Assembly (NCBI RefSeq): GCF_026210795.1
Contig: NC_089431.1
Span: 1,612,001-1,676,000, forward strand
DNA length: 64,000 nucleotides
Source of the DNA: Rhizophagus irregularis
Taxonomy: Eukaryota
Direction: 5' to 3'
Shown here: positions 35,094-61,652 of the stretch, piece after piece
Position numbering within the stretch: the first letter of the stretch is position 1
How the letters are laid out: each line of letters starts with the position of its first letter
Program-made: the position numbers and the translations under genes
Notes under the pieces: generated by a model
Seen by the model: the letters and a program-made list of their open reading frames with translations, nothing else
The model's database searches: none
What the model was told of the DNA's origin: nothing

Positions 35094-35344
35094 TTTTATT
35101 TGAAGAACAATTTATGAGGATTTATTTGCGGTATAGTAAATATTTGGTTTTATTTGTTCTTTGCTAATTTTAAGCGAATTTTAGTGATTTTATTAATGAT
35201 TATTTAATTAATGCGAAATTATGAATTTTGTGAATTTGCGAATTTTAATGAAGAATTTGATATTTCTTTCGTTTGTGTGAATTCTCAATTTTTTTTTTAT
35301 TTTTTTTATTTTTTTACATTTTTGGCGCAGGGGTTCAATCATAT

Positions 35345-35555
35345 TAATTTACAGATTTTTAATCATTCTATTTTTAAATTTTAATCATTTTAATTTGCAG
35401 ATTTCTTAATTATTTTATTTAATTTTAATCATTTTAATTTACAGATTTTTAACTATTTCTATTTTTAAATTTTAATCATTTTAATTTACAGATTTTTAAC
35501 TATTTCTATTTTTAAATTTTAATCATTTTAATTTACAGATTTTAATCATTTTAAT
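35345..35555. repeat. AT-rich tandem repeats (~47-bp unit) between the divergent genes
   Basis: Repeated ttttaaattttaatcattttaatttacagatttttaactatttcta. Confidence 0.6.
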
Positions 35556-35699
35556 TAATATTTTTACTGATAATTAAATTATTTAATTTATAGATTTTGG
35601 ATTTTTTTATCGATTTCGGTAATCAATTTTTTATTTAAATTGTTTCGTAAATTTCAAGTATATTTTTTCCTATACAATTTTCTAAATTAGTTGTTAATA

Positions 35700-37505: not shown

Positions 37506-40219
37506 CATTCGTCGAATTTCTTCGTATTACATTAATTTTCAGAATTCGGAAATTTGTATTTGAAATTCTTCAATTTTTTTTGAATATATTTTATTAAATA
37601 AATTACATATTAAATAAATTACTATATATAAAATTGTTTGTAATAATTGTGATGATCAGTGAAATTAAATATATTTGAATTATTTCGAATATTTATTTTT
37701 TAAAAATCTTCGCAGAATTTCGTTATTTGTTTTTTTATAATCTTCGCAGAATTTCATTATTTATTTTTTAAAAATTTTCGCAGAATTTTGTTTCTTGAAA
37801 TTCTGCGCAGTTTTTGATGAATTTTTTTTTCCAAAGACTGCCGACAGGGTCGCAGATCTGCGCAAAAATGTCACCTGCAGATCTGCGCAGATCTGCACCC
37901 CAAAAAATTTCCCGATGTAACCAATAGATTAAGAAATTGAAAAAACTGGAAAAGTTAAAAAATTCGATTGGATCGATAATTTGTGTACTGTACGACGGTC
38001 ATCTAGTGTGACATAAACCCTAACCTTATTCGCGATAGTATACTTTTAATGTGATAGTTATTGATGATCACTTTCCAAATAAATGTACTTTTTCGCTTAA
38101 TTTGGTATTTGTTGTGTGATCTTCAAGTATTTTTTCAGAAATTTGGAAGTGTGCAACGTGAACTTTAGAGTTCAAATTTATATATATATAATATGCATAT
38201 TGCATATTGCATATGCATATTCGCAATTTCAATAGTAATACATTATTTAATGCTAATATTTCAAAAAATATTGCTATATGCAAATATTGCTTCTTTTGAC
38301 ATCATTAGAATAAAATCATAAATTGGGCACTTCTGTGATACTCTTATTGCTTGTTAAGTTTAATTATCAAATAATAAACTTTTGTAAAAAAAAATTTTGT
38401 TGATCATCTTTTTTCTTTGATCATCGTCAAAGAGATAAATAAAAAAAAAATTAAAAAAAATTAAAAAATGAAAAAACAATTAAATTTAATTAACATTTAA
38501 TTAAATAATGAAGTTTTTACTAAAATTTATTAAATAAAAATAATATATTGTTTTAATTATTTTATCCATTACAATATAATTTTTATATTAAAAATTAAAC
38601 CAATAATACTAGTGCATTGATCATTTCAATGATCAAAACATTGAATAATAAAAAAGCTCCGAACAGTTCCAATTTTCAATTCTTTTTTAATTGGTCAGAA
38701 TTGTTTTCACGTAATAACTCACCATCCAGTGGTCATAGAAAGACGATTAAGAGCTCATTAGAATCCTCTTATCGAGAGCTTTCAAATGATGCCAAAATCA
38801 TCATTTTAGCATCGATAGATGGCGAGTTATTTTGACACATTATCAAAAAAAATAAAAATTGGAACCATTTGGCCAGAAGCTTTAAACAATACGCAAAATA
38901 ATATTATGTACTGATTATTGACATTTACTGAACATTATTCACTCAAGAATTGCTCATTGTATTGTTCAATACTATATTATTTTTTGTAGAATTATTTTAC
39001 TTTTTATTCAATACTTATCAATTTTTAAACTTCACAAAAAATTTAATACATATTTAATCAAAGGTCATCTGATTTAACTTCAAGAAACTTTCAGTTAGTA
39101 AAGTTAATCCAAAATTAAATTTTTCATAAAATTTTATCCATTTAACTTTTATAAATCTAAATTAAATATGTGTTATATGTTCAAATAATCCAAATTTATC
39201 AGAAAATAAAAAAATTTTTTTTATTATATTTAAAAATAAAGATAATAACCAATTTTTTTTTTCAATCACTTTTCAATCACTTTTTTGTTAAAAAAAATTA
39301 ATAAATATGAAAAGTGGTTATTTTAAACAGTAAGTAAAAAAAAAATTATTATTCATAAGAAAAAATTATTTTTTATTTGTTTTAACTTCAGTTCCCTACT
39401 TTTTTTTATATAAAATATTAAAAATATAAGCTATAATATAAGATTTTTTATTTTTTTTAAGTTAATAAGATTCTAAAATTTTTTTTTTGATAAGAAATGA
39501 TAACTTTATGTTAGTTTATGCAATTAACAAGTTCATTAATATCTTGGCATTCACATATACTAATCAAATGATTTTAAACTCATTTGAAAGGTAAGAATGT
39601 ACTTTATTTTAGCATTACTAGGCATGGTGATATCAACAATCAAAGATAAAAATTAAAAAAAAATATATTGAATGCATTTGCTTAGCAACCAGTGAATCAA
39701 TTCATTTGTTTTTGGATTCATTAGATAGGTCTTAATTTTCTCTTTTGGATGAATATAAATTCATCCATTTATCTTACATAGACATCAAGTTATTTGCAAT
39801 TTTGTTCCAAGAATTTTATAATGATTATTTAAATTTTAATAATGGTGTATTAAAAAAAATATGATTAACAATTTTATTCATAGATTATTATTTTGTGCAA
39901 CCGGTAATTTGGTAAAGTTTGTTTTTTAGAATCAAAAAGTGCTAATTCCAAAAATTGGCATATATGAACAAATGATATGCTTGGGGGACGAAGTCCCCCT
40001 TATTTAAGAAATAAATAAAGTTAAAAAAATTAAAAACATATAGATGATCATGCAGATCTTGTGATAATCAATTAAAAAAGTGTTAGACGAAATTTTTTTT
40101 CAAAAATTTAAAATTTTTTCTTTTTTTATAAAAACATCATAAAATTTTTTTTACATTTTTTCTATTTGTAAGATTAAATATTTGGATATTACATAATTAC
40201 AAATTAAAATTATAAGTGT

Positions 40220-40269
40220 AGCCGTTTATGACTAAATAATATAATTATATTATTTAGTTATAAACGGCT
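40220..40269. repeat. 50-bp loopless palindrome with one mismatch, followed by CTAAATAA-type short repeats to ~40600
   Basis: AGCCGTTTATGACTAAATAATATAA|TTATATTATTTAGTTATAAACGGCT. Confidence 0.9.
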
Positions 40270-41344
40270 TAGACTAGGTTATTTAGTAATAAAATAATCT
40301 AACTATAACTAAATAATCTAAGTATGACTATAAATAATCTAAATATAACTAAATAATCTAAGTATGACTATAAATAATCTAAATATAACTAAATAATTTA
40401 AATATATCTAAATAATCTAAAGTTAATAACCTAAATATGATTAAATACTCTAACTAAATAACCTGTTTGTGACAATTTTGTATACCTAGTTATTTTTCTT
40501 ACTATATTCCTTCCCTTTGAATCCGCTTTTCTTTAGCTTTTTCCCATTTATTATTTGTGATCATGTGATTAAATAACCTAAATATTACTGTTACTAAATA
40601 ATCGAAATGTACCTATTTTTGTTTGGTTCTCTGCGCCAATAATCATTTTCTAATATAATTTATGTTATTGGGGTTCTATGGTTGATTGGTTATTAAATTC
40701 TATGTTGGAGGTCCAGCCTGTCTGCAATTATTTGGATTCTAAGTTTTATGATGAAGTTTTTGCCATTCTGCGCCTCTTTGGTTGTCTGTTAAGGATTCGA
40801 GGGTGCTTTTCTTTTTTACCTATTTTGTTATCTATCAAAATGCTGAAATATGGTAAAAAAATATCATGTTAGGTGGTGCAGTAGATCTGCGATTAATTTT
40901 GGCCAGCACTATACCATAATTTTGGCCGATCTTTTGGGCATGTGATTCAAGGATCCAGCTTAGTACCATGATGGTGACTTGATAGTGTCCTGGAACTTCT
41001 GTGAAGCTGTCATGGAACTAGTGAGGAACCATCATGGAAGTGTTATGGAATGTCAGCTTGGATGCTGACTTCTTATACCCAAAGTTCTGACCAAAATTGT
41101 GGAATAATGCTGGCCAGTACTGCGCCAGATACGTGATACTGTTCCATCACCAGAACAGCCATTCATAGTTACGGGCTAGTAACGGGAACATTTCTGGAAC
41201 ATTTTTGGAATCCAATATATATGCATTTGTATCACATATTTTTGTATCCATATATTTCTGAAATCTTCCTAGCTCCAGTCTGGCGGATGGTTGGTTAGTA
41301 AAGAATTGGAGGTGCAATATGTAAACATATTTTTGAGATGGATT

Positions 41345-41750
41345 TCGTTCTAAAAATTCCATCCTAATTGTCTAAGTTATTGGGTCAACTAGGACGGGAA
41401 CTAGGATGGGTTTTGATATAGGAGAAAAGCTTTTTTCTTTGATCTAACTTGTTCTTATATACTATGTCCTAGTTGTCATAGTTGTCCTAGTAAAAAGTAA
41501 AGTTCTAGGAAAAACCGATTTTTTATATCTTATGCATGCTATGTATGTATGTTATATATGTATGCTATATATACCTATATGTAAAAAAATAAAAAAGTCT
41601 GGGATTTTGTGTTTTTTCTAGGACAACTATGACAACTAGGACGGGTATTCAAATTCCCTTTAGTTTGATTTGACAATGCCATTTAGCTATAATTTTCCAT
41701 CCTGGTTTCCGTCCTAACTCGTCCCAGTAAACTTGGACGGATTTTTCTAG
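41345..41750. repeat. Nested inverted repeats around an AT-rich core (origin-like)
   Basis: Perfect 25-bp IR GTCCTAGTTGTCATAGTTGTCCTAG (41466-41490 / 41618-41642) inside imperfect outer IRs (41345-41415 / 41690-41750); repeated CTAGGAC motif. Confidence 0.8.
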
Positions 41751-41773
41751 TAAATCCCAAAGGGATCGTGTCA

Positions 41774-42086
41774 CTAGTGACAAGTCGTATTATTTTTGTT
41801 TATATCTAAATTACCTACCAGTATCTCTGTCGAAGCCAACTTAGCCTGCTTTTTCTGATGATAATGTTCCCTTGATCTATGTTTTTTTGCATGCGTATCG
41901 CAATAGTCATATTTGGATCTTGTATTCTCTTTACACCCGGGTTCTTTGCAAAAAACTTGCCTAGAATTCCGATGGACTTTACATTCCTTTGGATCATAGC
42001 ATCTCCGATTGCACACTTCTCCAGTCCTAAGAATATATGGACAATAATAAAAATTCTAAGGTGTCAGCTTTTTTCTGCCTCCCATT
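41774..42086 (-). pseudogene. Small Cys/His-rich zinc-finger protein, one-base frameshift near the start
   Basis: MGGRKK/ADTLEFYYCPYILRTGEVCNRRCYDPKECKVH..CKEPGC..YCDTH (two CCCH-like units). Confidence 0.55.
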
Positions 42087-42191
42087 TGTATATATCAATT
42101 AATAATGTTGAGGAATTATTTTCATTTTAAACTTTTTTCTTGCGAATAATATACCTTGAGATTTAGTATAACTATAAATCTTTCGAAAAAA

Positions 42192-45100
42192 ATGGCCGAA
42201 CATTTCGAGCTTTCAGAGTTCCTCTCCTCCGACGCCCCGCCGCCCATACTATTGTGGGTTTAAAGCCTCCGATGTAGGTTAATACCGATATAAAATTCGT
42301 GATGATAGTGTTCAGCCAAGAAATTTCCTTGGCGCAGATAACGAGGACGAAATAGAGGCCATACTTGCAGAACGTGAAGGCCATTCCTTATACGAAATCA
42401 TCGATGGTGATGAACCACTCCGCCCTATTATAGATTTTGACTTACTAGTAGAAGCATTAAATGCTATTACCCCCAAGCTTTCAAGCGGTCAGGCAAAAAA
42501 TTTACTTTGTCGCGCCTTTAGAGATACTTGCCTAGAAATATTTCCAGAATGGGATAAAGAAACTATGTCTATTGCCGAAAGTAGTGATGAGAAAAAAATA
42601 TCTCTACATATCTTAACTTTCGGCATGAGACTTCCAAATATCGCTAAGGTTTCAGCTTTCACCGAACTTGTTCGCAAGAAACTTCCAGCAGGATTACAGA
42701 AAAAAGGGATAATTGATAATATAGCAAATATAGGTTCTTTCAAATCTTTCTCCTTACGGATGCTTGGAACGCCCAAATATGATAAAAAAATAGACAAACA
42801 TATTCGTATAAAAAAAGTTATTCGTCCAAAAGATGGATCTATCTTTGACTTTATAATTCGTCCACCCAATGATGATTCTAGAGTCATTGACAGTCCTCTT
42901 TTGGTTGTTCCAGAGTCAGAAGTTAACAGATGTTCGAAGGAAAATAATGATACAAGTAGCGAAACTACCCAGGCTGATTTCGATTTTGTGGAATCGTTAC
43001 TTGGGGGAAACAGTATCGAAGGGTATACTCTCTCATTCCCCTCAGATAACATTCCAGACTTGTTTCCATTAACTCGCAACTCCCCATCACATTGCCCAAT
43101 ATGTGATCGGGAACATGAAAGTGATAACGGATATATCTTACGAAATAAAAAAATATATAGATTTTATTGTCATCGTGCAAACCACGAAAGAGAACCTGGA
43201 ACTAGAAATCCCTCAGTAAAGCTTACCATTAGTGAAACTGCTTTGCAACGGGAACAAAAGCTTCCGAGTCCTATAAAACAAGACCGAAGCAGAATTTCAA
43301 ACCCAAAAGACCATTTCGTATGGTGGATTTAATACGTATGTGTACTTCGGGTAAGAAATTCTCCCGTGCTGAAGATTATGAAGCAATCCAATCAACCGTT
43401 GCTTATATTCAAAAGAAAATACCAATCTGAATATTAAAACATAAGGATCCAGAAAATGGGCTTTACTTCGATATGGGAGCTGAGCTAAAGCTTGCCAAGT
43501 TTGAGATTAAAATAATCGAATATGGGGGTGAATCGGTAAAGTTAAAATCATTAATAGACCAGGCAGTTATTAAAGGTCTAATTGTTTACGAAGATTATGA
43601 CTTCCTCCCATATCCCATAAGCGTTCCTCAACCAGATTCAGATTTCTTTAACCTTTTCCTAGGATTTTTAGCTAAGCCAGGGACAAAGGTTAATAAAGAA
43701 ATTATGGATCCGATTCTCTGGCATGTAAAGAATATAATTTGCAATGGGGATGAAAAACTCAATAAATATATCTGGAACTGGTGGGCATATTTGGTTCAGA
43801 AGCCAGAAAAGAAGCCTCGAACAATCTTAGTACTAAAATCCACTTTACAACAGTGCGGAAAAAATATTATCACTGATTTTATTGGTGATAAAGTTCTAGG
43901 AGAGCATCTTCATTATGCAGGATCGGATTTGGAAAAAATGCTTGGGCACTTTAATAGCGTCATCAGGACCCCGAAGAATACATATAATACTGGGATCCAA
44001 TTTTGTATAAACTTACTATGTAATTTCTTAATAAGTCATATGTTTGAAATTGTATAACCAAATAGCAGTTATGCAAAAAGTCAGATTTTTATTTGTATAA
44101 CAATAATGATTTTTACAATAAGTAAGATTTTCATTTTGTATAACGGATATTAGAATTTTTTTTTATATACGTTTAAAATTTTTTAAAGTTTTTTTTTATT
44201 TTTTGTTTAAGAAATTTTTAAGATATTTTTTAATAAAGAGTTTTTTTATTTGTTTTAAAAAACACTTGAAATATTTTTTAATAGAAATTGTTTTTTGTTT
44301 AAGAAGTTTTTAAGGGTTCGTTTAAAGACATTTTTTTAATAAAAATGAAGAAATTTTTTTAAAATTCATTTACAAAATTAAAAAAAAATACATTTTATTA
44401 TATATCTCAGCATCCAGTGATCATAGAGAAATGAAACACAGCTTATTAGAATCGTCTCAATACGATGAGTCGAATGGTGGTAGCTTCATATTTCTAGGCG
44501 CGATAGATGCCGAGTTATGTGATAAAATGTAAAAATGCACAGTAGACGAAAATACAAAGTGCCGATGTGTGGTATAGCTCATCATCTATCACACCTAGAA
44601 ACACGAAACTACTACCATTCGATTCGTCTTGTCAAGACGAATCCAACGAGCTGTGTTTCATCTTTTTACGATCACTGGGTGGTGAGATATATAACAAAAT
44701 GTATTTTCTTTTATTTTGTAGTATACACCCAAATTTTTGCATAAAACTTACTATATTATACATATTGGGCATCAATATCTATCGGGTATTTAAAATTTTA
44801 ACATGCAATTTTGTTTAAAAATTTTATTTAAGTTATTTTTTAATAATTTTTTTTAATAATTTTTTTTAAAAAAATTTTTTAAGTATTTGTTAGAATTTTT
44901 AAATAGTTTTTAATAATATTTATTAAAATTTTCAATAAAATTTATTTGAAATTTTTCTTTAAAAATTTTTTTTTTATATAAACTCAGATTTATAATTGTA
45001 TAATTTATAATAAAATTTGAACTTATGTGATGATTTTGTATAAAGCTTCTAATAAAATTAGGCATATAAAGTTATATTAAAATTTTGGGTCTGGATCTGA

Positions 45101-46529
45101 GTTGTATATGTATTCTTCGGGGTCCTGCGTCATCCAAGCTCGAAAACTTATTGTTATGAATGAGACTGGGATGTCTAGTGGAGAATGGCATAGATTTAAT
45201 GGGCATCTTAAATCTCTTATAACAGAAGGGAAGGTATCCATAGAACGCAAAGGTCTTGAAACTAAGAGATTAAAAGATTTTGCCAGATATATGGTTACAA
45301 GCAATCAGGACGCCCCACTCAAAATAGATATAGGAGATTCCCGTGTAGTTTGTTTTAATGTCTCTACATGCTGTAGAGGAAATACAAAGTATTTCAAAAG
45401 ACTAGGAAATATACTTGACCATTCTGATGCGCCTGGCGTAGTTATGAAATATCTTCTTAGTCTAGATATCTCAGATTTTGATCCACAAGAAATTCCTGCA
45501 ACTAAAATGAAAGTAGATATAATGCGCGACCAGCTTCCTAATCCCATTTGATTTTTAATTGATCATATTACATCTTGGGTTGAGGATAAAGTAGCCAACC
45601 CAAGTCGTACATCATTGTATCAGAATTATCTTGAATGGTGTGGAGAAAACGGTGAAAAGATATTCCCTAACAACATTTTCGGTAAGAAGTTATTAGAGAA
45701 AAATATTATTGAATGCAAGAGAGCAAGTAGTGGAATAAGAGAATGGCAATATATTCTCGACCGCTCCAAGATCGTAGCTAAGCTCCGTGAATCTGGCCTA
45801 GGTGATATGGAAGAATTTTCCGATATACCTCAAGACGACTTGCCCGAAAATGAGACTACAGACATACCCATATTCAATGTGCCAGAAACGGTCCTAGAGG
45901 GACCAACTATTCCACAGAAAATAATCCCACCTCAGCCAGAGCGCCATAACAGAGTAGCCGATAGAAAGAATAAGCCTTCACCTAATACCAGTAAAGATAA
46001 GAAGGCCAGTAATCAGGATGATTCGACTCAGGCACTTTTCGACTATATGGCAGAAGATACACGTGCTCCGGTCGCCCCAACATCTGGTACATCCGAGACT
46101 TCTAAAAGACCTGAACCAGTAATCGATGAACCAGAGACTTGTAAGTCACCCAAATCTATTAAATCTAGTAACGAAGTATTATCTACCATACTTCTGGCTA
46201 GACAAGAGCGAGAAGAGTGCCTCAGGAAATGGGCTATTGATTATGGCCAAGATCCAGACGTATTCGTGACCATCACAGAAAAAGATATCAGACTATCTCA
46301 TGAATATAGGGACAGAATGATGTCGGACGCAGATGCCATCGATTTCGCGAAAGAAGACGGTATGAATGTAAACGATATATTTTATATGTCTAGGAGAGAA
46401 AGGCTAATAAGTGAAGAAATATATCTCTGCAACTTCGAGAATGCATGTAAGCTCCGGACATATGTTTATGATGATGAGGAGTGGCAAAAGGGTATTAGCA
46501 TACTTCAAGAGAACGGTCACCTATGGTAG
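42192..46529 (+). pseudogene. AEP primase-polymerase + zinc finger + SF3 (D5-like) helicase fusion, disrupted by frameshifts, stops and a MITE
   Basis: YEIIDGDEPLRPIIDFD (motif I), ISLH (II), IIDN (III), SLRMLGTPK; CPICDREH..DN..YCH zinc finger; FNLFLGF, QQCGKN (Walker A), LIVMNE (Walker B), MVTSN (motif C); LYQNYLEWC wHTH-like tail. Confidence 0.85.
43964..45127. mobile_element. Non-autonomous TIR (foldback-like) element inserted in the helicase
   Basis: TIRs CAGGACCCCGAAGAATACATAT / ATATGTATTCTTCGGGGTCCTG. TSD is CGTCAT (6 bp) or GCGTCATC (8 bp, if the ends are AGG/CCT). Removal restores HFNSVIQARKLIVMNE. Confidence 0.9.
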
Positions 46530-46923
46530 GTTTGATATCGACAAGAAATGACAAAAAATATAAGTATACTCAGCGCAAGCGCAGAGAATGGTATGCTTTG
46601 GTAAAGAGTGAATAGAAGTGGGTTATGAAATATTAGTAGGGATGGGACTTTTGTTCTTTACAATTAGGCAATATAAAATCCCAAATTATTATTATTTTTT
46701 TCGCATATCCTATCTACCCGCAATTTTCAAATATATATAAAAGATATTCTGGCCGGAGCTTGTGACCTCATAGAGAGCCCGCAATAAGTTATAATATTCT
46801 TTTTGCCTACCGACCATGGATGTCAGAATAATTATTTATTTTTTCGAATTGAACTTTCTCCGCATAGTATATACCAAACAACCTAGGTATAATCAAATAT
46901 CTTACATATTACCAAATAATAAC

Positions 46924-48077
46924 ATGGCTGGCATCGCTACTAGATATGTAACAGAAAACGAGCTCAATATCGAGATAAGTATCGAAGAGCTTAGTAACCA
47001 CGCTCCGGCATTGGATATCCTTTTGACGGATAAAGTTAAGAGGGATCAGGCACGACAACGTCTCCAAAAGGGATATAACTTTAGCAAAGAACAGGTATTT
47101 GCATTAATTCCTAAGCAAACAGCTGGTCGAAAAAAAGGAGGAGCCTTACCCAATGCTCCCAATGCTCCTGAAACTCCCGATATCACCCAAGAAGCAGAAC
47201 CGGACGCAGTGAATACATGTCAAATTTCACCGAAAGAGACTATTAGAGATTTGGCCCAGCGTATCATTCGGGATAATCTTGGTGAAGCAGAAATAAAAGT
47301 TATAGCTAATACCTTAGCTAAATCCGCCTCTAATGCTAGCGCTGGTTCATCACGCCTTACTAGACTTCGAAGAGAGATGAGAGCCCTCGAGGCTTCAGAA
47401 AAAATAGTCTCTGATACAAAGATTCCAGACACAACCCGTTCAGCTAATAAAATTCAAAAGGAGAATAGATTGTTACATGAAAATGAAGGAATCGATTATC
47501 CAGACCACTTCTCATTAGAATCGGTTAAGGAAAGACTGGATTTATATGATGTGTCCAATATACCTGATAAACAAGCCCTAGCCGATGTAATGATAATGCT
47601 TTGTATTCGCCCTGCTAAAATTAAAGACTTACGCATATCTAATGAAAGCGTAACTGAGTATGGAAAAAACCGGGGACAACAAGACATTCCCTGGGTATTC
47701 AGATCACTAGAGAAGAATGAGGAACGGGCGAAGCAATTGCTTATATGGATTCAGGAAGCAATTTCTTCTGGACAGTTAAAAGACCCAGGAAAGCCAGGTG
47801 TATTATGGTTCAATACATTCCTAAAAAAGGATGAATTCCTCCCTAAAGTAGGCAAACCACTACTTCCTAGTTCTTTGCGCAAAATAGGGCAGTATTTGCA
47901 GTTGTAGCTCATGGAGCGAAGAATTTATCGAAAGCTGAGACCATTGCTAGTGAAGCACTTCGCCACAGTCCCGACAACCATGCCTCTCCTGCAAAAAACT
48001 ATACTATAGTAAATTATCGGTTAAGAGGGGAACCATATAATCAGGCAACGGTATTCAAGCTCTCCGGTGAAAACTAA
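46924..48077 (+). pseudogene. Tyrosine-recombinase-fold protein (protelomerase / telomere-resolvase-like); one-base frameshift near 47890
   Basis: Candidate catalytic series MLCIRP (R), GKNRG (K), SLRKIG (R), then in the shifted frame EALRH (H) and SPAKNY (Y), ending at TAA 48075-48077. Confidence 0.6.
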
Positions 48078-48770
48078 TCACATATAAGGTTAGAAGACCA
48101 GAGTATTCAATAATATTCTTGGTGTTTAGCTTCCAATTTATTTCTCTATAATTCATATGCAGGAATCAGCTATACAATATTTCTTCCACCGATCATGAGC
48201 AGGTCCTAATTGGGAATTTTATTTTTTCTCTCGAGGCAAGATCTAGCATATAGAATATATTACGAAAATGGTAGCTGATCAAAAGTATTCATCTGATCCA
48301 GCGAGCAGGAAGTTATCAGATATACAGAGAAATTAGCCCAGTTATTAGGAACAGATAAGCAGAATGCAGAGGTATATATTACGCTTTCTGACGAAAATAG
48401 GGTGCTAAAGAAACAGTTGGAAGAATATCATTCCCAACATAACACTTTAGAAAGGGGGTAAAAAGGTTAGAAAGGGATGTAAAAGATCTGGACGAATGCG
48501 TGGATAGGGAAACTGTGGTCGACTTAATACAAAAAATAGTCCCCTCGCTGGTTAGAGAAAAAAGCCCAATAAAGAATAATCCTTCTTCCTGGCTCTTCGT
48601 CTGACTATTAATCTGATTCTGATATTGATGAAATAGTAAAAATGATTAAGCATCAAAGGATTCGAATCAGATCCGGGAGCGCCAAGTCCAAAGGAAGGTT
48701 TCAGAAGAAAAATGTATATCATCCAACTAGTCTGGACCAGTTATCACTCCGCGCTATAGCTAACCGATAA

Positions 48771-49235
48771 ATGCCAGTTTGCAGTGATAGAAATTTATTT
48801 TTTATATTTGGATATTATATATGCCATAATAAAAATGATATTCGTGAATTGTGTAATCGAAGAAACCAGCCCAGCCAAGCAGTACTCGATACAGGCGCTG
48901 ATGTAAGTTGTGTTAGCCAAAAACATATTGGTGAATTAGGAATTACATATCACAGTGAAAGCAATAGCATTGTAACTCCGGATGCATTCTATTCCACATT
49001 AGGAAAAGTCAATCTGCATATTGGTTTTGAAGATGGCGAGAAGCATAAAAGCACACCCGTTGAATTCATAGTTTCTGGACCAGATTGGCCTGATTATTTT
49101 CCTGACTTAGTATTGGGAGGGCCATGGTTTTGAGAAAATGGTGCAACTTTGGATATATGCGATTCAAAACTATTATTAGATGATAATTTTGCGATCCCAT
49201 TCAAAGAAGTAAAAAATGAACCTAATGCAAAATAA
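48771..49235 (+). pseudogene. Retropepsin-like aspartic protease with an internal TGA at 49131
   Basis: VLDTGADVSCVS and DLVLGGPWF; the frame continues past the stop (ENGATLDICDSKLLL). Confidence 0.75.
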
Positions 49236-50517
49236 CAATTATCCGAAGCAGTGGTCATCAATATATGTAATTTTGCAAAGCATCTTAACGGCTATTTTTT
49301 TATTAAAGATACAGCATATATTATCCATGGCACATTCTAGCGATATTAATATACCAGAACTATTAGAGCAGATTCTATATTTCCTAGCGGTAGAAAAATC
49401 CCTCTACCCCGCTCTATTTGTTTCCCGATTGTGGTACAGATGTGGTGCCTCTTTTCTATGGGAACGCATTGAGCTAAAGGGGAATGACCTGAAATATGGC
49501 CATCATTTCCCAGACGATTATACTTATCATAAGAGAGACTGTACTCGATGTAAAAGATTTATAAAATTAATAAATGAAAAACATAAGCCAGCTTATGTCT
49601 TGAATACAACCCACCTAGAAATTACTTTTTGCCATTCACTTTCAGATAAAAAAATAAGAAGTATTGTGGAAATGTTCCCAAATATAGTTCATTTAGATTT
49701 CAAAGATAGTATAGGTTTTGGTGATAAATCAGCGGAATCATATCCTAATTTAAGATATCTCAATTTGTGGGATGCTCAAGCAATAACCGATAAAGGCTTA
49801 TGTGCAATCATAGGATCATGCCGTAAATTAGAACATCTAAATATTTCTTACTGCGAAAATATTAGCGATAAATCTTTGTTTGCGATCACAGAAAATTGCC
49901 GTGATTTACAAGAGTTCCATTTTGCCAAAGCGCGTTGGATTACAGATAAATCTATAAGTTGCATCATAAACTCATGCCCAAATTTACGAAATCTTGATAT
50001 TGCATGTAGTAAGGGGGATGTCAAAGATGCTAGTATGTTAATACAGAGATGTCTCAGCATAGAGTATCTTGACTTTAGTGGGGCTATGGCTTTGTGGAAT
50101 GATGAATTGATTATAGCCATCATCAAAGGATCTCCGAATTTAAGACACTTAGAGATCGATGGTAATGATATCACTGATAAGGTTACTGAAGCACTGGCCC
50201 ATTCTTGTCATAAATTAGAATATCTCGATCTGGGTTGCTGTGATTTTGTTAGTGAACCATCAATTTGTAATGTTATACGTTCCTGTCTAAAGCTCCAACA
50301 TCTTAACCTTAGTCACTGTAATATTACCAGTACGACTATCAAAGAAATTGCTCGCTCATGTCTCAGTTTAAAAATTCTAGATTTGGAAGGATGTGAAAAT
50401 ATTAGCAAAAAAGCTATGGACCAGCTAAATCCAAATATTAATATCGAAAATTTTGATGAAGATTACTGTTCCGATTCGGAATCTTCTAGCTCTGAAACCG
50501 AATCAGAGTCTGAATAA
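49216..50517 (+). CDS. F-box / cysteine-containing LRR protein (FBXL/AMN1-like), intronless; likely start 49327
   Basis: [22 protein letters not shown]-box-like motif; repeated LxxLxLxxCxxITD LRR units; acidic tail. Confidence 0.85.
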
Positions 50518-50689
50518 TCTAGCTAGTCCGGAGCGGTGATCACTTCGCTCGAAAGAAGAATTTGCTGGGCCACTCCTGTGCGACAGAAAAATAAGTGGAT
50601 CATCAGTCAGGTCATGTGCAACATAATTTTCGCATATACTGAAAAGAAGCTATGTACGCTACCAGTACTTTATTTTTTATTAAGTATAA

Positions 50690-51094
50690 TTGATCTACAA
50701 TATTAGCAAAATGTTTGATGAGGATATAGATGCTGAGAAGGAGAAAGCCTTCGATGAATTTACCAAAGAATATGGACAGAGAGAAGAGGATTGGACTATT
50801 TATGATGATTGGTATGACTGGGATGACCTTTTTTGTGAAATTAAGACCCATTGGAACACAAAAGCTGTCAAGTATTGGAGAGAGAAAATACTTAAGCGAT
50901 TTGTATATAGTCTACCCAGTGTAAGTAATCCAACGTCATTATTCCATGTACTCTTACAATCCAATGTTATTTATCTCCCACAAATAATAAGTCTAATAGA
51001 ATTGCCATATTATCCACTTGAACTTCGATCAGAAATATGGGGTCCCTCCAGGACCTGGCCGGATGGTATATATTGGTCAGTCCGAGGTCAGTGA
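50690..51094 (+). CDS. Hypothetical protein with an acidic, Trp-rich N-terminus; likely start 50711
   Basis: Intronless ORF between two copies of a conserved intergenic repeat. Confidence 0.45.
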   Translation: MIYNISKMFDEDIDAEKEKAFDEFTKEYGQREEDWTIYDDWYDWDDLFCEIKTHWNTKAVKYWREKILKRFVYSLPSVSNPTSLFHVLLQSNVIYLPQIISLIELPYYPLELRSEIWGPSRTWPDGIYWSVRGQ

Positions 51095-51663
51095 TCTGGT
51101 CCTCTTCAGCTCGAAAGAATTTGCTGAGCCACAGATTGTGTGACAGAAAAAGGCCGATCACCAGGCAGGGTTTGTGCGACATATTAATTTTCACATATAT
51201 ATTCGAAAAAACATATTAACCTTTATTCTTTATTTTTTTCCCGAACAAACATGAGAAAATGTGAAAGAATGTCTACAAGCAACACAGGACCAACTCTAAA
51301 AGTAAATAGCGCCGGCAAAAGCATATGTTATGAAGGGCTGAGGGACTCACAATTTTGAGATCGCCAGGCGTAAAACCAACTATAGTCTCTCCGGTAGATC
51401 TACATGTGAAAAGGTATGAGATTTCCGTTTGCATGCGCTTTCATAGGACTCTTGGCATCAGACGACAGTACTAATTACGCCTCATACCTTCTTAACTCTT
51501 TCCCAGCAAGATATAAAGCATGTAGGAGTATGTAGAAGTTCAGCCAACTTTCCGCAAAAAACTTTCTCGTAAAATAACACAAAATAAGGTATGTATATGC
51601 CCTAAATTATGTATGTATGGGAGCGAGTTTTCTCACTATGGGTCTTATATTTAGGAAAACAAA

Positions 51664-51954
51664 ATGGACGAAATCACTCTCAATTGTCTTATCGTTCCTA
51701 TAGGAAAACTTATGAATATCCCTTGCGTTAAAGTAATGCAGGCGATTAGAGTTGAAAAAGATGAAAATTATATCATGCTCGAAGCTACAATTCAAAGCAG
51801 ATTGGATGTTGAGATCCCACTCAAATTATGTATAATTCAAGCCGGAAGCAATAGTGAAAAGGTAATGGATAGTAGTACCCCTATTTCCGATTATTTTACT
51901 GAGGAGCCTAAAGCAGAGCACTTTCATATTACTGTATACCCCCGGTCAGAATAA
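51664..51954 (+). CDS. Stand-alone Crinkler (CRN) N-terminal ubiquitin-like domain protein
   Basis: ITLNCLIVP N-terminal strand; ISDYF..EP..EHFHITVYP matches the CRN HVLVxxP terminal motif. Confidence 0.7.
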   Translation: MDEITLNCLIVPIGKLMNIPCVKVMQAIRVEKDENYIMLEATIQSRLDVEIPLKLCIIQAGSNSEKVMDSSTPISDYFTEEPKAEHFHITVYPRSE

Positions 51955-52269
51955 TCTTCTGTATCATGTAGCGCTATAGTCGCAATTTTATGTATTGTAG
52001 GCCGAGTTCCGGCAACGTTTTTTTTATTTCTTAAATAAAGCATATATTACGTTCTTGTCGTAAATCTTGAAAAATATCACGTGTAATGATGTAATATAAT
52101 CGCCTGACAATTCTGTACTACATCTTAATTGCATATATATTGGGCAAATGCATTATGAATCGATACAAAAAAATCTATCATTTCTCCCGAGCGCTTTTTA
52201 TATCCATAAACAAGCTTTACCTGTAACTGCATATTTTTTCGCAAGCACAAACTCACATATATAAAAACC

Positions 52270-53455
52270 ATGTCTTCACAAGCTTCTTCACCCGCTTCAC
52301 CCGCCTCAATAACGGAAGAAATATCCACTAGAACAATGTCAGACGTGGTTAGGGATTTTAATACAGAGGAGCTTATCGAATATTTGGGGAGGAAAGACTT
52401 GAAGCTCAAGGAGTCTCACTTTAAAATTTTACGCAAGGAAGAAATAACCGGTCGCTCTTTCCTCAAATTAACCGAAGAAAAACTTGAACGTTATGGTATG
52501 AAAGGAGGACCTGCAACAGTTCTTGTAGAATTTATTGAAGGCCTCAGTCAGAAATTACGAAACTATTCCTCGCTTAAAACTCTCGACGACCTGAAGGAAA
52601 TGTTACGTAGAAATAAGGTCAATGGGGAGGATATAACAAACATCAAGCAGTTTACTCCCGGTAGGTAATTAATTATTTTTTCGAAAGTGACTAGATAGCT
52701 ATATTAACTTTATTTTTTCTGTAGTCTTCGAGGAGATTAGTGATGATGATAAGGCATTCAAACACTGTATGGAGGATATTATTTTAAAACTTTCGAACGT
52801 GGAAACCATGACCGATGCTAATGAGGCGACGCGCTGTGAATTTATTTCAGCAATATTACATGCATCTATCGCGATAGCTAAAAATCTCACCTCTCAAGAC
52901 ATATTTATAGTTTTGCAGAAAGACGTTTCCGGTGAAGATGCCACTGGCCGAGTAGACTACGCGATCAAAAGTTTGGAAGACCTACTTTGTATAACTGAGG
53001 GGAAACCACGCAATATCAAGATTGGATATGCGCAGGTAAGACTACTACTCAAATTTATGTTTTTAGAGCACCAAGCCGAAAGAGAATCAATAATATTAAC
53101 GCATTTTATTTCTTAGAATCTGGCGCAACTTGAAAGTGCATTTCAGACAAATAAAAAGAAACGGACTGCGGATCAAGCATTTGGGAACGACTATTTTGAT
53201 TATATATATGGTATTGTGACTACAGGCACAGAGTGGCATTTTATCATATATACTCCTGATGGTATATACTCTACGAGCGGTAGTGAATATCAGATCAATC
53301 TCACGAAGTCCGCAGTTAAAGATAATCCCGAATTACTTCGAAGCAATGTGAAAAGGGTAATCGGCATAATTGTAGGGTTATTGAAGGATCGGGTTAGTGT
53401 AGATAGTTCCCCAACTAGCAAGAGGGCTAGGATCGAAAAAATTATTAAAAAATAA
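52270..53455 (+). CDS. SAM-like domain + PD-(D/E)xK restriction-endonuclease-fold protein (CRN C-terminal type), 3 exons
   Basis: EEITGRSFLKLTEEKLERYGMKGGPA (SAM); NEATRCEFI, GRVDYAI, ITEGK, GYAQ/NLAQLESA, YGIVTTGTEWHF; two short GT-AG introns. Confidence 0.75.
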
Positions 53456-53624
53456 TATGTATCCTGGGCTACATCCCGAACATTTGTATTTATTTTTCGC
53501 ATATATTAATAAAAAATTTTTCATTTTTTTCTTGGCAAATTTCGCTTACGGGCCGTAAGGGAAAAACATGTGATATATTTTTTTATTTTGAATGCTTATA
53601 TACATTGTATTAGTTATATAGATC

Positions 53625-55208
53625 ATGTCATCCGAGCTTGAATCATTGAAACAGCGTATCACTGAACTTGAGGCTGAGAATGCAGAGCTTAGGAAGGAGA
53701 ATACTGAGATCCGCGATCTTAGAATCAAGCTCTTGGTGTCTGATGCTGAAATAGCTGAACTTAAGCATAGGAATAACGAGTTTCTAAGAGCGAATGCGGA
53801 ATATAATGAGAGGCGTGATGCTGAAAATGCCAAACTCAGGGCCGAGAATGTTGACTTTAGAGATAGACTCACGAAAGTGGAACAGAATCAGACTCTACAA
53901 AACGCCTTAACGGCAAATGATAATTCTTTTAACAACAATTCATCTAACTTTGCTTCAGCGCCTTCGGCCAATTTGGTTGCAGAGCCAACGGTAACACAAC
54001 ATGAGAAACCGTCAGTGGATGAGGAAATGGATACTTCATTACCTGAAGAACCGATACCAGAGGAGTTGACAGAGGTAATCATATCAGCTGTTAATATGTC
54101 TGTTATGGACCAATGTGATCAGAAATCCTTGGAAGATAAGGAGACGGTTGCTTTCTTGGATGAAGAATACAAGAAAAGGGTTAGCGATGAGATCAGACAG
54201 CGCAATAGAGAGAAAAAGCTTCGAGACTTGGGTTTACCTGGTACTTCTGATATCCCTTCGTCAGAATCATCCACAAGTTCGCATCCTATCCCTAATAACC
54301 CAGTCTTATCAGAACAAAATGCTAAAATAAAAGCACCTGAAATAGATATACAGCTTTTGATACAAGAATTGCTTATAGAACCTTCGGAAGAAGATTGTGT
54401 TAAGGTTGTTAATGTGGAGGAGAGTGATCAATCGCCTGCAATCGAATTAGCACATCTATATGAAAAAACGAAATTTGCTGAAATTAGGACTATATGAGCC
54501 AAACAAGATGAAATCATGAGCTGGTATTGCTATAGAAGGTATTTTAAAAAAAGACATAGTGAGATTTTACCTGGAATTCTGGAGAATGGAGTTATTACGA
54601 ACAAAAAAGCCTATGAACTTGCGAGTGGGCAGATTTATGATGAAATGCTACAGTATCTTTCAGGAGTCTCTTGTGTAAACTTGCGCAAAAAAACCCAGCT
54701 AACTAAGCCTATATATATGTTAATTAACGAAATTGGAGAAGATAAGATTATGCGAATCAAATCTTATAGTGCAAACAAACTCTCAAAGTTAACTGACATG
54801 CAAATCGATACTATTAAAAATCATCTTACTACACAGCGTGAAAAAAATTCACGCACTCACGTGACTTCAGAAATAATCACCGGTGATGCAACTGCGCCTG
54901 TTGAATCTATGGTAAGCGTTCCTAATTCTTTAGGTGATTCCAAAGTAATCGGTCCAGATAATTCACCACCTATTCCACCAGCGCCATGCGTAAGCGCCTC
55001 CGGCCAAGATTCACATGTTCCTATCAAGATATCTAAATTCCCTGAAGATAGGAATATCATCTATGAAGCTGTACGTAAACGTTTCCCTTTCTTATCATGG
55101 ACTAAATCAATTACAAAATATCGAGATCATTTCGAATATACCAACTCTGAAGCCAAGTGCCCAGCATGTACGAGCATTCACACACATCGAGGCATATGGG
55201 GTGATTAG
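53625..55208 (+). pseudogene. Coiled-coil protein with a conserved helical domain and a C-terminal CxxC..H motif; in-frame TGA at 54495
   Basis: ORFs 53625-54497 and 54516-55208 are in the same frame across one TGA; LKQRITELEAEN heptads; NLRKKTQ..IY.LINEIGEDKIMRIKSYSANKLSKL. Confidence 0.6.
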
Positions 55209-56360
55209 ACTTGCCAAAGTAAAGATAATTTCTATTATCTTATGTGTCCCTGGGATATTCATTAAAACAAGAAAGTCAAAATTGCTACACAGGTTTGCTA
55301 GATCGATCATCTGGCCGAAGGCACTTAACGCAAATGCGCAGAAGATGATAAAGGACTGAATCATCATCGTATCTTTTTTTCGACTCACGTGGGTGGCTTA
55401 GATATCGTGCACAGTAAAACGTCATCTGCAATAATACGTCACTGGCTCATGCGCAGTAGTGTGGTCGCAGTCGTTATTTTTTAGAGAATCTATTAATAAC
55501 CCCGGCCAAGAGCAATATTTTGCGTTACTATACTTATGAACATTCTCCAAAGTTCCGGTATGTTCTATCTCACTTGTTACGCAGTTCTAAATTACTAATA
55601 AAAAAACAGATCCTGATTTACATTGCGGATCGTAAGACAGGGCGCTGTTAAAAAGAGAATCAAAAATGAAAATAGAGCCGATTAGAATCTATGATTTACA
55701 GATCCTCAGATAAACGGTATATTTTTATTATCCTACTGACGTTTAGCGCATTCAAATTACGTATACAGGTTAATCACATATTAATCCGTTTTTTGAATAG
55801 GAATTAGTTGTACATGTGTGATTCGTCATCTACGGATCTCGATCCATGATGAACAAATATTCCGATTTTTATTCTTACAATTGAAATAGGGGTAGGGTAA
55901 TAATAACTATTCTACATAACGAACTTCCTTTTTTGGGAAGGCTGTGAACTTAAACAAAGATACCCACATGCGATCTTCTGTTTTGCAAGAGATCTTAGAA
56001 GTAAACGGAAAATTTTGAGATACGGCATTGCTCCATTAGTGTTACATTAAGTTGTCGGATTTACTTTTAAGCTGTATTGTTAAATTCAGGGAGGAACATT
56101 TGTTATTATTAGACGAGATCCAGGCCGTTATAATTGCTTTAGCTGAAAAAATATAATTACATCAGGAAATTTTATAGCGCGAAAAATTGCGTAAGTTTAC
56201 GATTTTGTAAGTTTATGAAAGTTTATGGCATAATATTTTGAAAAATTTCAAAATATTACGTAAGTTTACAATTTCGTAAGATTTATGTGATATTACGGTT
56301 AAAATATTACGTAAGTTTACAATATCGTAAGATTTACGCAATATTACGGTCAAAATATTC

Positions 56361-56830
56361 TGCAAATTTACGAAACTGTAAACCTGCATAATATTACAGT
56401 TGAAATATTTCGAAAATTTACGAAACTGTAAACCTGCGTAATATTACGGTTAAAATATTTCAAAAATTTACGAAACTGTAAACCTGCGTAATATTACGGT
56501 TGAAATATTTCGAAAATTTACGAGACTGTAAACCTGCGTAATATTACGGTTAAAATATTTCGAAAATTTACGAGACTGTAAACCTGCGTAATATTACGGT
56601 TAAAATATTTCGAAAATTTACGAAACTGTAAACCTGCGTAATATTACGGTTGAAATATTTCAAAAATTTACGAGACTGTAAACCTGCGTAATATTACGGT
56701 TAAAATATTTCGAAAATTTACGAAACTGTAAACCTACGTAATATTACGGTTGAAATATTTCGAAAATTTACGAGACTGTAAACCTGCGTAATATTCCGTT
56801 TCGAAAATTTACGAGATTGTAAACTGCGTA
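56361..56830. repeat. Subterminal tandem array, ~9 copies of a 50-bp unit
   Basis: cgaaaatttacga(a/g)actgtaaacctgcgtaatattacggtt(a/g)aaatattt with 50-bp periodicity. Confidence 0.9.
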
Positions 56831-57834: not shown

Positions 57835-58643
57835 TATTAGATTTGATTTGATTTTTATAATTTGATTTTGGGATGAGTAAAAATTTGAAAGAAAGTCGTA
57901 AAATGTCACTTTAAATAAAATTTGAACAATACCTCTTTGGTTTGATTTTATTTCTCGTTTCAATTAAAATTTAATTTATTAGACTTTTCATCATTAAACA
58001 TATTAATTAAATCTCATGCGGATATGGATTATCTAAATATAAATATCATGATTCTAAATATAGATATAAATCACTTAATTTATTTTAATTTTTTTTTAAA
58101 AAAAAATCTTAGTTTGATTTCAATTAAAAATAATTAAAAATCATGTACATGTTTTGGTTATTTAAATATAAATATCAATATATTATATTTAAAAATAAAA
58201 CAATTTATTATTAGCACATTCTATTGAATTTTAAAAAAAAATCATCAATATATCATATTTAAAAATAAAACAATTATATTCTGATTAAATATTTTGCGTA
58301 CATTTCTTAAAAAAATCATAAAAAAAATCTTGTACGTCGTACATGCAATTACTAAATATCATCCCCTTGTGATAAATAAAAAATTACGCAACACAAATTC
58401 AACACAAACTCAACACAAATTTAACAAATTTAACGAAATTTGGCCAAAATTAACAAATTTTTTACTAGAATTATCAACACAAATTGAACACAAATTTCAG
58501 TCACGATTTATTTATATCACGCCCGTGTTGTTAATAATTAAATAAATAAATCTGCATTTTATTTATGATATGGAAAACGTGACCATAAATTCTTTTAAGG
58601 ATATAATTTTATTAAAATAAATCAAAACTCCTATATCAAGTGA

Positions 58644-61600
58644 CTAAAAAATATATTTATTTACGAAATATTCATTTTGTTTATCAAATCGGGGTACTAT
58701 GTGAACGACACCATGTATAGACTCTATAGCTACAAAGTTATATAATTCTATCAATTTTAAGTGAGGACATCCATATAAATATGGGTTCCTTTTAGATTTA
58801 AAATCGTACCATTGAATTAATGCGAGATTTAGTGGTGGGTCTGTTAATACTTCTGCTAACAATAAGGCCTATAAATAATAAATATTTATTAATACTTTTA
58901 TAATAAATTATTACATAAATTGGAAAAATACCTGTCCATAACAAAGTCCTTTGTCTTATATATAATCATTTGATTCTTCAGAATCCATTGAAATAGCTAT
59001 GTCGCTAAACCATACTTTATTATGATACCTGTTTGTGGCACGCATTATGGCACCATTTTCCAGTGTTACCGATCCGTATATGTTTATTCGGGTTTCACCA
59101 ATAATTGTGAAACCATCAAGTAAATCTAGATATGAATCCAGACAACTTATAAATCTAGCAAAACCAATCTGCATTTTATTGTCTACGGAATCTTTTTTTT
59201 CATTAAAAAATGTATTTGCATCTTGTAAAGAGAATTCAAAGAGTCTTGCAGAAAATTTACAAGTGCGAGGTGTTTTTGCCGGATTCACTGAATGTTGAGA
59301 CATTCTAATAGATATTGCTTGACGTTTTATCTATTAATTTAATTTCCATCTTAAGTTATATAATAAATATATACAATAAATAAAATTTTCAAATACTTAC
59401 AGTTCGTAAAATCTGAGATTCGACATCTTTTTTATTGCTAATTCGGTAGGGTATTTTAATGAAATATTTGTGAAGACTTTCGTAAGTTTCTGTAGTATAG
59501 CCATTTATTGCGCCATAAGATCGTATTGAGTCAATAATATGATAAACCCATGAATGCAATTTAGGTAACTTCAAATTGGAAGGAGAAACAAATTTAAAAG
59601 CCTTGACAAACATCCGGGCCCATCTATGTATTGCATTCTAAAACTTAAATGTTAATTTAATTTATTTAATTTAAATTTTCAATTTTACTAAAATTTTAAT
59701 ACATACATTAAATTTCTCCAAGTCACTTTCACTAAATTCTTCATATCTACTTAAAATATACATTTCATTCCAATATTCGTACAATTTCGTAAGATCATCA
59801 TTATTTACAAAATTATCTACTTCATTGTTATTTTCATCATATAAATTATCAATAACAAATATCATGACTTTCATCAAACTTCGATATTCATTAGCAGTTA
59901 ATCTTGCAATTGACTGCAGTCCATTGGAAAAAATTTTAATGGCGGGAAAACGTGGGATTGCTGCTAGATGGCGATCTACTTCTTCAACTAATTTATTACC
60001 ATTAACATGTTGCAATTTTAAGATATCGCACGTGAAGATAATTTGATAACGAAATAAACCTAAATCTAAATGATGCATTCTGTCAGGAACAGTAGCCAAG
60101 TAGATATTTATATTCCTTGATAATATAAATATTTATAATTAATAGATATATATGTTATTATAATTATTTCTACTTTTGCATACTTACGGTAAATCCCAAA
60201 AAAAATTATGTACAGATTCTATGCAAACAGATCTTTGTGTATCATTTTCAAAATGTTTACGCATTTCATCATGAGTTCTTAGTATTACATCGTTAACCGA
60301 TAAGTCTATATTTGCAAGATTTTTCCTTTTAACTAAACAGGAGTGACATGGAAGGTTTGAATTGGAGGATTTATAAACTAAACAAAAACTTGCGGCTTCC
60401 GGCCAATCTGCAATAATAGTTGAAACTCTAGGATAAAACCAGGTATTTTCATTATTTATAAAAAGGTCTATACCATCTTTTAATAAAATAATAGGTTCTA
60501 ATAAATGACGTAAAGATTTATGAAAGGTATCACGAACCAGATCTTTATTTGCAGCTTCTAAAATTGGTAAATATCCCAAAAGTTGCTTTGCATCCTGTTT
60601 ATTACGACGCCATATTGGGATATTACCTAATGTAATATATATTGGATGCAATTGACTTTTTCCTAATGTATCTGTAGTTGTTGCATCTGAATATAAAATA
60701 ATTGATAATAATTTGGAACCAGTAGGTAAGGATTCTTGCGTAGTTTTCCACCATTTTCCAGTGTTTTGTTCACTGTAAATACTTTCTCTATTATACTATA
60801 AAATAATATAAATAAATTAAAATAAATATTATTTAAATTATTGAATTAACTAATATTTACTATTTACCTTATAGTTTTCGTAAGATAGCACAAAATTTTG
60901 TGTTATGTCAGGAACAGTTAAAATATTTTTGATGCACTGTATTAAGTTTTGATAATAAAGAAAATAATCTTTATCTTTATGTTTTGTTATAAGAACTTTA
61001 CTAAATTCTAAATTAGAAAACTTCATATTATTCATAAATGCTCGTCCCTGTTCGATATTTTTTGGTAATGGTGATTCTGTAAGATTTGAATGTTTATTAA
61101 AAAAACGTATTATTTCATTACCACCTTTATTATTTATTTTATATTTCGTTACTAATAACATTAGATCTTTATAAGCATCATTAGGAAATTCTGTGCAAGT
61201 TTTGGTATTGAGATTTTTGGGTTCTTCAAAAATTTCAGGCTCTTCAGAAATTTCAAGCTCTTCAGATGAATCTAATATATTTTCAAAGTTACTATCTTCA
61301 AGGCTCATCTCTGATATTGCACTTCCAATACTGTCAAATGACATATTTTGTACATCATTATCATCATCCACCTAAAATTATAAACCAAATGAGTTAGTAT
61401 AATTTGAGCTTTTTTCTTAAGAGCTTTAAAAAGAATAATCTGGAATAACATAATTACCTCAACTTTATCATTTTCATATTCACTACTTAGATTACTTCTT
61501 GTATCCATTTCACTGCTATATTTTTCACTATCATTATTATCATCATCTTCTTCTACTTCTAATTCTACATTTTTTAAGCATTTTTGGGCGTGTTGAGTAT

Positions 61601-61652
61601 ATGCAAAGCGTTGACTGAATATTCGCATACAAAGGGGGCATTTGAAACTCAT
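58644..61652 (-). pseudogene. Plavaka-type transposase 2 (multi-exon), nearly intact; TAA at 58956
   Basis: CPLC..F..YTQH..C zinc finger; YSDATTTD, HPIYITLGNIP, IIADWPEA, PCHSC, PDRMHHLDLGLF, PKLHSW, ETYESLHK, LALIQWYD. Confidence 0.85.

Follow-up and report, generated by a model that had tools for sequence, protein, structure and literature searches.

A decayed gene block with primase-helicase and protelomerase-like genes from an apparently undescribed family in Glomeromycota

The 64,000-nucleotide stretch of Rhizophagus irregularis contig NC_089431.1 analysed here (positions 1,612,001 to 1,676,000; the window below) contains a gene block at 40880..55400 that an initial annotation had proposed as a self-replicating element. 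Our analysis indicates that this copy is dead and belongs to a multi-copy gene-block family found across Glomeromycota, and very probably this family is mobile. The family is real and widespread, and apparently undescribed. Its core is a primase-helicase gene followed by a recombinase-fold gene, and a predicted structure favours reading the latter as a protelomerase (hairpin telomere resolvase) rather than an integrase. On balance, we lean towards reading it as a hairpin replicon similar to N15 that exists in the fungal nucleus as an integrating element. The left end and core of the window copy comprise the following features (ORF, open reading frame; AEP, archaeo-eukaryotic primase; SF3, superfamily 3; MITE, miniature inverted-repeat transposable element; TIR, terminal inverted repeat).

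40220..40269, no strand: 50-bp zero-spacer palindrome, candidate telRL-like resolution site and likely left end
40292..40600, no strand: tandem 40/19-nt repeats with the core motif of the palindrome
40880..41130, no strand: imperfect long inverted repeat
41360..41750, no strand: nested inverted repeats in which a short motif is reiterated, candidate origin
41774..42055, minus strand: small Cys/His zinc-finger-like ORF, divergent from the replicase
42192..46529, plus strand: AEP primase, zinc ribbon and NrS-1/D5-like SF3 helicase pseudogene (ATG at 42192)
43965..45126, no strand: MITE (non-autonomous TIR element) in the helicase, not part of the element proper
46924..48077, plus strand: protelomerase-like gene, frameshifted near 47890

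The gene block and its relatives

The order and domains of the genes in the block, checked with the ORF list and Pfam, agreed with the initial annotation. Most genes are intronless, as had been described, but the gene with a SAM (sterile alpha motif) domain and a putative restriction endonuclease (REase) fold has two GT-AG introns. GC content is about 37% in the block and 20-30% in the immediate flanks. Pfam assigned the primase-helicase gene to DUF5906 (E 8e-13) and Pox_D5 (E 4e-4), which confirmed the D5-like helicase call, and the helicase matched PDB 6k9c (E 1e-10). The AEP motifs (DxD, sxH and D), the zinc ribbon and Walker A/B can be recognised by eye, and the N-terminus of the primase is like the AEP_C962R and UL52 clusters (0.97). 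Frameshifts near 42240 and 43325, stop codons at 42280, 43428 and 45549 and the 1.16-kb MITE interrupt the gene, and the copy is decayed as first suggested. The MITE has 36-nt TIRs and an 8-bp target duplication (43957-43964 and 45127-45134), and the MITE-free joint 43956>45127 is present in runs X8 and X10. A 350-bp fold-back (44371-44720) lies inside the MITE, and a segment 72% alike is found at 38714-38830.

The helicase and recombinase genes co-occur elsewhere in the same order, as the initial annotation had predicted for a mobile module. A search with the recombinase found at least 400 proteins among 2635 candidates, and the named proteins among the 120 matches listed were all glomeromycotan; a profile search gave 549 representatives at 50% identity, 150 of them listed. 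The primase query returned 30 longer homologues, and the named ones were again all from Glomeromycota. One gene model from Gigaspora rosea, P0151, runs from a primase N-terminus into a family B DNA polymerase, and may be mis-joined or include a neighbouring element. Helicase and resolvase accessions are adjacent in two assemblies of R. irregularis (PKY56850/51 and GBC54095/96) and two apart in Diversispora epigaea (RHZ84963/65). Gene models reading through from helicase to resolvase made up 8 of the 309 fetched proteins, and seven of them came from five species in four genera (R. clarus, R. irregularis, Gigaspora rosea, Scutellospora and Glomus cerebriforme); in the alignment P0130 likewise reads through. 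An identical D. epigaea resolvase (P0105) is filed under RHZ85035, RHZ85036 and RHZ85049, hinting at recent or tandem copies.

A metagenome scan gave 278 pattern matches, of which 141 were confirmed and 80 loci were kept. Upstream sequence was informative (at least 500 bp before an intact start) in 23 of the 80 loci and downstream sequence (at least 300 bp after an intact end) in 42; several of the queries were themselves taken from these loci, and five matches are therefore self-matches. An SF3 helicase tail lay directly upstream of the resolvase, on the same strand, in 10 of the 23 informative loci. The other 13 had an SF2-type replicase (one locus, L024), an unassigned ORF together with the zinc-finger gene (4), a 2-cysteine-adaptor-like ORF (7, one of which also has a zinc finger) or nothing recognised (1), and L051 and L077 look like one locus. 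Downstream of the resolvase, the 42 loci had a small coiled-coil ORF (27), a second arrangement (6), an F-box gene directly (1) or nothing recognised (8).

In the 12.8-kb locus L024, the replicase (984-3650) combines an AEP with an origin-binding SF2 helicase of UL9-like type (Herpes_ori_bp, E 5e-12) in one protein. The AEP part is a relative of the window AEP (E down to 3e-11), and a homologue of the window zinc-finger ORF is also present (30% over 80 aa, E 4e-12); related ORFs occur in L003, L013, L051 and L077. The replicase module of L024 is flanked by 65-bp direct repeats (324-388 and 4404-4472). The upstream ORF of L003, L013, L051 and L077 was considered as a tail of the L024 SF2 helicase and rejected; the two looked alike, but the match was not significant. 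Upstream-module labels changed 9 times on the resolvase tree compared with a shuffled mean of 9.9, and were not clustered. This fits replicase swapping, with labels blurred by short contigs. At positions 1-521 of L075, the resolvase that is intact in L024 and L020 is cut by a hairpin-bearing insertion.

The protelomerase-like enzyme and the palindromic left end

The initial annotation had listed a tyrosine recombinase/protelomerase-like gene, which lies at 46924..48077. A recombinase fold is predicted, and the integrase reading is less favoured by the fold evidence than the protelomerase reading. The structure model was built for the 263-residue core of the L024 homologue on 86 alignment rows, not for the window protein, and reached pLDDT 92 and pTM 0.82; an earlier whole-protein model on 35 rows had pLDDT 58 and gave no structural match. 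Foldseek placed TelA first (top five rows; E 5e-3, TM 0.56) and then Cre. Re-alignment of 476 chains, all taken from the Foldseek candidates, gave Z-scores of 14.3 for TelA, 13.2 for TelK and 9.4 for ResT, and of at most 7.3 for integrases and Cre (lambda Int 7.1, Cre 6.8). The TelA and TelK alignments cover 252-253 of the 263 model residues with the helical domain included, and the predicted L024 model has the helical-bundle and catalytic-domain fold of these enzymes. In a language-model search of the ESM Atlas, 19 of 30 matches were in ResT-TelK_cat clusters at 0.95. Among viral models (BFVD) an integrase came first and a coccolithovirus telomere resolvase second (E 0.04), both weak matches.

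Five residues of catalytic type are conserved in 87-100% of the alignment rows (R in 72/82, K in 79/79, R in 73/84, H in 74/77 and Y in 71/73), corresponding to R127, K146, R209, H238 and Y250 of the L024 core, and residues of this type are present across the two frames of the window gene. Full-length intact resolvase ORFs were found in 7 of the 80 loci, and many others are cut by contig ends. Comparison of these seven gave dN/dS of 0.11-0.34 in 18 of 21 pairs (three not computable, several near saturation), indicating at the sequence level that the resolvase gene is under purifying selection. A divergent resolvase clade (P0221, P0230, P0259, P0274, P0275 and P0281), from ENA, JGI and Logan records on contigs of at most 22 kb, keeps the same catalytic-type residues; a homologue search from it recovered only 3 of its own members. 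No relatives were found in prokaryote genomes, and none in phage records with a divergent-resolvase query.

The start of the block at 40880 probably has to be moved. The strongest palindrome, 40220-40269, sits 660 bp to the left of that position, and the left end is probably near 40220. This palindrome is the longest of the window, with 25-bp arms, no spacer and one mismatch, and arms in 100 shuffles of 38001-42200 reached at most 14 bp. In runs X8 and X3, contigs of other copies of the left-hand repeat depart from the window sequence at 40216-40220, and therefore the palindrome begins at a breakpoint. Beyond it these contigs continue with mutually similar sequence, and one X3 contig has a variant palindrome centre. 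No different left flank of the palindrome was seen among the 24 of 455 loose ends listed.

Between the palindrome and the replicase, contig joints from other copies, seen in two to four runs, connect the tandem-repeat segment with 40537-40620 and this in turn with 40855/40893, and the interval 40435-42400 is covered by overlapping diverged contigs. Diverged contigs cover the imperfect long inverted repeat in four of four runs, and a single X15 contig (41097-42142) joins the nested inverted repeats to the zinc-finger ORF. The fold-back potential had z of -4.98 at 40880-41200 and -8.38 at 41340-41770, and none of 100 shuffles reached either region; the upstream palindromes first reported are thus above chance. 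Summed contig depth over the core was several times the single-contig depth in X3, X8 and X10, which agrees with the presence of many copies, although by the tool's own warning this measure gives no copy number. Among the 15 of 180 joints listed, none skipped the whole block. Run X21 was considered as an empty site and rejected; the core is uncovered in it, but the flanks are also nearly uncovered, and X21 may be RNA.

Replication, integration and related systems

In the explanation that we favour, the primase-helicase would open and prime an origin located in the inverted repeats that precede its own gene, and synthesis would be carried out by its own PrimPol domain or by host polymerases. 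Replication round a hairpin end would produce a palindromic junction, for which 40220-40269 is the candidate, and a resolvase dimer would cut this junction and seal the ends as hairpins, in the way that TelN acts in phage N15. Because a second integrase is not seen in the block, entry into the chromosome might take place at or next to the palindrome through reversal of the resolvase reaction or through repair of an opened hairpin by the host. Inserted copies would then decay. The protease, F-box/LRR (leucine-rich repeat), Crinkler-like and nuclease-like genes would travel with the element as a semi-conserved accessory module.

The block resembles N15-type linear plasmid prophages in having a primase-helicase, a protelomerase-fold enzyme, for which TelK is a top structural match, and a palindrome of about 50 bp. 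The N15 replicase RepA is also a primase-helicase. Unlike N15, the block is integrated in a eukaryotic nuclear host, has an AEP-SF3 replicase and shares 12-13% identity, and partition or virion genes were not seen in it. The telRL site of N15 is described as a 56-bp inverted repeat (PMC13236599). The same source reports that a phaeovirus has a telomere resolvase and that reads fold back at its telRL-like site, a precedent in a eukaryotic virus; like the block with its predicted resolvase and candidate site, the Ectocarpus phaeovirus combines integrated eukaryotic DNA, a telomere resolvase and a telRL-like site. Phaeoviruses are complete viruses that form capsids and use a separate tyrosine recombinase to excise, whereas the block is about 15 kb with one recombinase-fold gene.

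Several observations weigh against the hairpin replicon. The Foldseek E-values are weak (best 5e-3), the rmsd to TelA and TelK is 4.7 Å and identity is 12%. The resolvase has no Pfam, PHROG or PDB sequence-profile match, and the Pfam protelomerase profile PF16684 gave no match up to E 1 in 14 homologues. Its residues were paired with the TelA catalytic residues R255, K286, R366, H394 and Y405 (PMC3558466) by order and spacing and not by residue-level superposition. A protelomerase alone leaves insertion unexplained, and phaeoviruses use a separate recombinase. The right end, a second palindrome with the same motif and a continuation of an interrupted flank were not found within the window. The palindrome is whole only in the window copy; none of the 80 loci extends that far upstream of an SF3-type replicase, and the first 240 bp of L024 contain two looped hairpins and not a zero-spacer palindrome. 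A free or hairpin-ended molecule was not observed in the data, which are assembled contigs only.

Alternatively, the protelomerase-fold enzyme of the same element might now act as an integrase, with a circle excised and reinserted at the terminal palindrome in the manner of Cryptons or Polinton-like viruses (PLVs), and with no hairpin form. We consider this unlikely, though it has several points in its favour. The enzyme is the only recombinase of the block and yet the copies are chromosomal, UniRef names one homologue 'Tyr recombinase domain-containing', and Cre and lambda Int follow next among the structural matches. The block also has the order of the PLV 'end module', in which an inverted repeat, a primase-helicase and a tyrosine recombinase follow each other (PMC11296320). 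Set against this are the Z-scores of 13-14 for TelA and TelK over the whole model compared with those of integrases, and the HxxR histidine of integrases, three residues before the second Arg, which is variable in the resolvase family. A palindrome without a spacer is also, on established knowledge, a better fit to a resolvase site than to an att or lox site, which have spacers. Cryptons, including Glomhopper (DUF3504) of Glomeromycota, and Starships (DUF3435) are likewise fungal and use a tyrosine-nucleophile enzyme, and Starships carry cargo. In contrast to the block, they have no primase-helicase (0 mentions in the available text of PMC13465315), and no Pfam match to DUF3504, DUF3435 or a Crypton-type recombinase was found in the 14 homologues.

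A larger Polinton-like virus, of which the block would be the replication end and whose capsid, ATPase and integrase genes would be deleted here or lie beyond the stretch, is improbable. L075 has, 8-10 kb downstream of the resolvase (9051-11019), an A32-like ATPase gene interrupted by a stop (Pfam E 0.002), together with an ORF that by eye is like the C-terminus of a Polinton integrase, but these genes are on the other strand behind an AT-rich spacer of about 1.1 kb and may belong to a neighbouring Polinton. Polintons are reported in these fungi, and R. irregularis may hold Polinton-like elements with a primase-helicase (PMC11296320); swaps of replication modules are described as common in PLVs (10.64898/2026.06.19.733378). 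No such genes were seen in the 15-kb block, the window flanks or L024. Family B polymerase (pPolB), capsid, packaging ATPase and DDE transposase genes are missing among the block ORFs of at least 80 aa, as first noted. PLVs are defined by capsid proteins and an A32 ATPase, and neither was seen in the block or L024, where no capsid-specific profile was run. Three protein queries and a single palindrome pattern recovered no relatives from IMG/VR, the protein scans being dependent on conserved peptide patterns. The protein-primed PolB and rve integrase of Polinton/Maverick elements are absent from the block ORFs and L024. The block replicase, an AEP with a DUF5906 helicase, also differs from the HUH Rep-PIF1 protein of Helitrons.

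Least probable of all, the genes might be debris of old giant-virus insertions spread passively by segmental duplication or other transposons, with the palindromes as unrelated MITEs; the primase likeness to Nucleocytoviricota AEP_C962R clusters, the 2-cysteine-adaptor-like ORF in relatives (E 0.001), the P0151 model and the dense nest of transposable elements in the window would agree with it, but gene order is conserved across Glomerales, Diversisporales and Entrophospora, dN/dS is about 0.2, three D. epigaea accessions hold identical resolvases, and contigs connect the palindromes to the core in other copies. The primase-helicase is the only viral core gene of the block, which does not have the several core genes of a giant endogenous viral element. 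Nothing ties it to the giant endogenous virus described in Rhizophagus, in which D5 was undetected according to the available text of PMC10640383, and on this point, too, the initial annotation is not refuted.

Accessory genes, neighbouring elements and significance

Downstream of the resolvase gene, the window copy has the following genes.

48268..48770, plus strand: broken small coiled-coil ORF; the neighbour that most constantly follows the resolvase
48771..49230, plus strand: retropepsin-like aspartic protease with an internal stop at 49131
49213..50517, plus strand: F-box/LRR protein (Pfam)
50543..51199, plus strand: ORF 50690-51094, without family assignment, between direct repeats
51655..51954, plus strand: Crinkler N-terminal-like small ORF
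52270..53455, plus strand: SAM domain and putative restriction-endonuclease-fold gene, two introns
53622..55208, plus strand: coiled-coil protein with a helical C-terminal domain and an internal stop at 54495

The retropepsin call was confirmed by Pfam (E 6e-4). The Crinkler N-terminal call is weak, with a match to PF20147 (E 0.034) below the cut-off, and in the SAM-REase gene the SAM domain was found (E 1e-5), while the REase part is a PD-(D/E)XK-like motif seen by eye with no match in Pfam. The cargo, proposed at first to be variable, is semi-conserved in order, because protease, F-box/LRR and coiled-coil neighbours recur downstream of the resolvase across loci. The protease is in the same position at four loci (L029, L036, L039 and L055), and an F-box/LRR gene lies downstream of the resolvase in 7 of the 42 loci, on the same strand in 6. 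A Crinkler-like homologue stands beside a truncated resolvase in L050, and a homologue of the last SAM-REase exon is downstream of the resolvase in L035. The C-terminal domain of the last gene is 32% alike (E 2e-9) to a RING-fused gene downstream of the L024 resolvase, and L024 carries a protease and a nuclease-like ORF in addition to this relative.

The direct repeats 50543-50638 and 51104-51199 (about 100 bp, 75% alike) flank one ORF in a cassette-like manner. L037 has a single copy related to these repeats, and the bin 51081-51720 is among the deepest in all four runs. Run X21 covers cargo paralogues and not core genes. One of its contigs joins 53033 to 53115 (window 53036-53116), which may be a spliced intron, if X21 is RNA, or an intron-less paralogue.

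No repeat connects the two ends of the block, in agreement with the initial report that a TIR pair is lacking; long terminal inverted repeats were not found in the window, and the right end is undefined. The 50-bp tandem array at 56180-56830 was tried as the right end and rejected, since its motif differs. It has about three units inverted relative to ten and a 28-bp palindrome (56231-56258), and is probably the end of another element; other elements start near 56150. The ORFs flanking the block resemble by eye Gypsy- and Plavaka-like genes. A Plavaka-like element is bounded by 42-nt inverted repeats (95%) at 31435-37919, and a second Plavaka-like gene set lies at about 58600-63900. Nested Gypsy-like elements occupy 9042-28400, with long terminal repeats at about 9042/28012 and at 14037/23833 that are 99-100% identical, and the inner pol ORF (16511-18631) ends by eye in a nucleotide-kinase-like tail.

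The literature covered, with most subscription papers and Repbase outside its scope, held no description of the element and nothing joining protelomerase and Rhizophagus. Protelomerases in the literature found are from bacteria, phages and some giant viruses, and none is connected there with a transposon or nuclear plasmid of a eukaryote. The nearest prior remark is that distant primase-helicase homologues are abundant in R. irregularis (PMC11296320), and the available text of that source does not contain the word protelomerase. About two-thirds of R. irregularis repeats are reported as unclassified (PMC11075540), and 'helicase-primase' genes were described as filtered out as transposon-related without assignment to an element (10.1101/2021.03.30.436303).

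We tentatively suggest that the family could represent a new class of capsid-less hairpin-telomere replicons, with a protelomerase as the only recombinase, swapping between AEP-SF3 and AEP-UL9-like SF2 replicases and carrying F-box, protease and Crinkler-like cargo, which colonised Glomeromycota and has distant relatives in other hosts. The novelty would lie in the element class; the replication logic is already known from N15. The family would explain many annotations of 'highly derived D5-like helicase-primase' and would offer a directly testable enzyme-site pair. It would also give a candidate vehicle for the expanded accessory genes of a key plant symbiont. If the new class is real, it would be a route for the amplification of accessory gene families in these fungi, and free linear molecules may persist.

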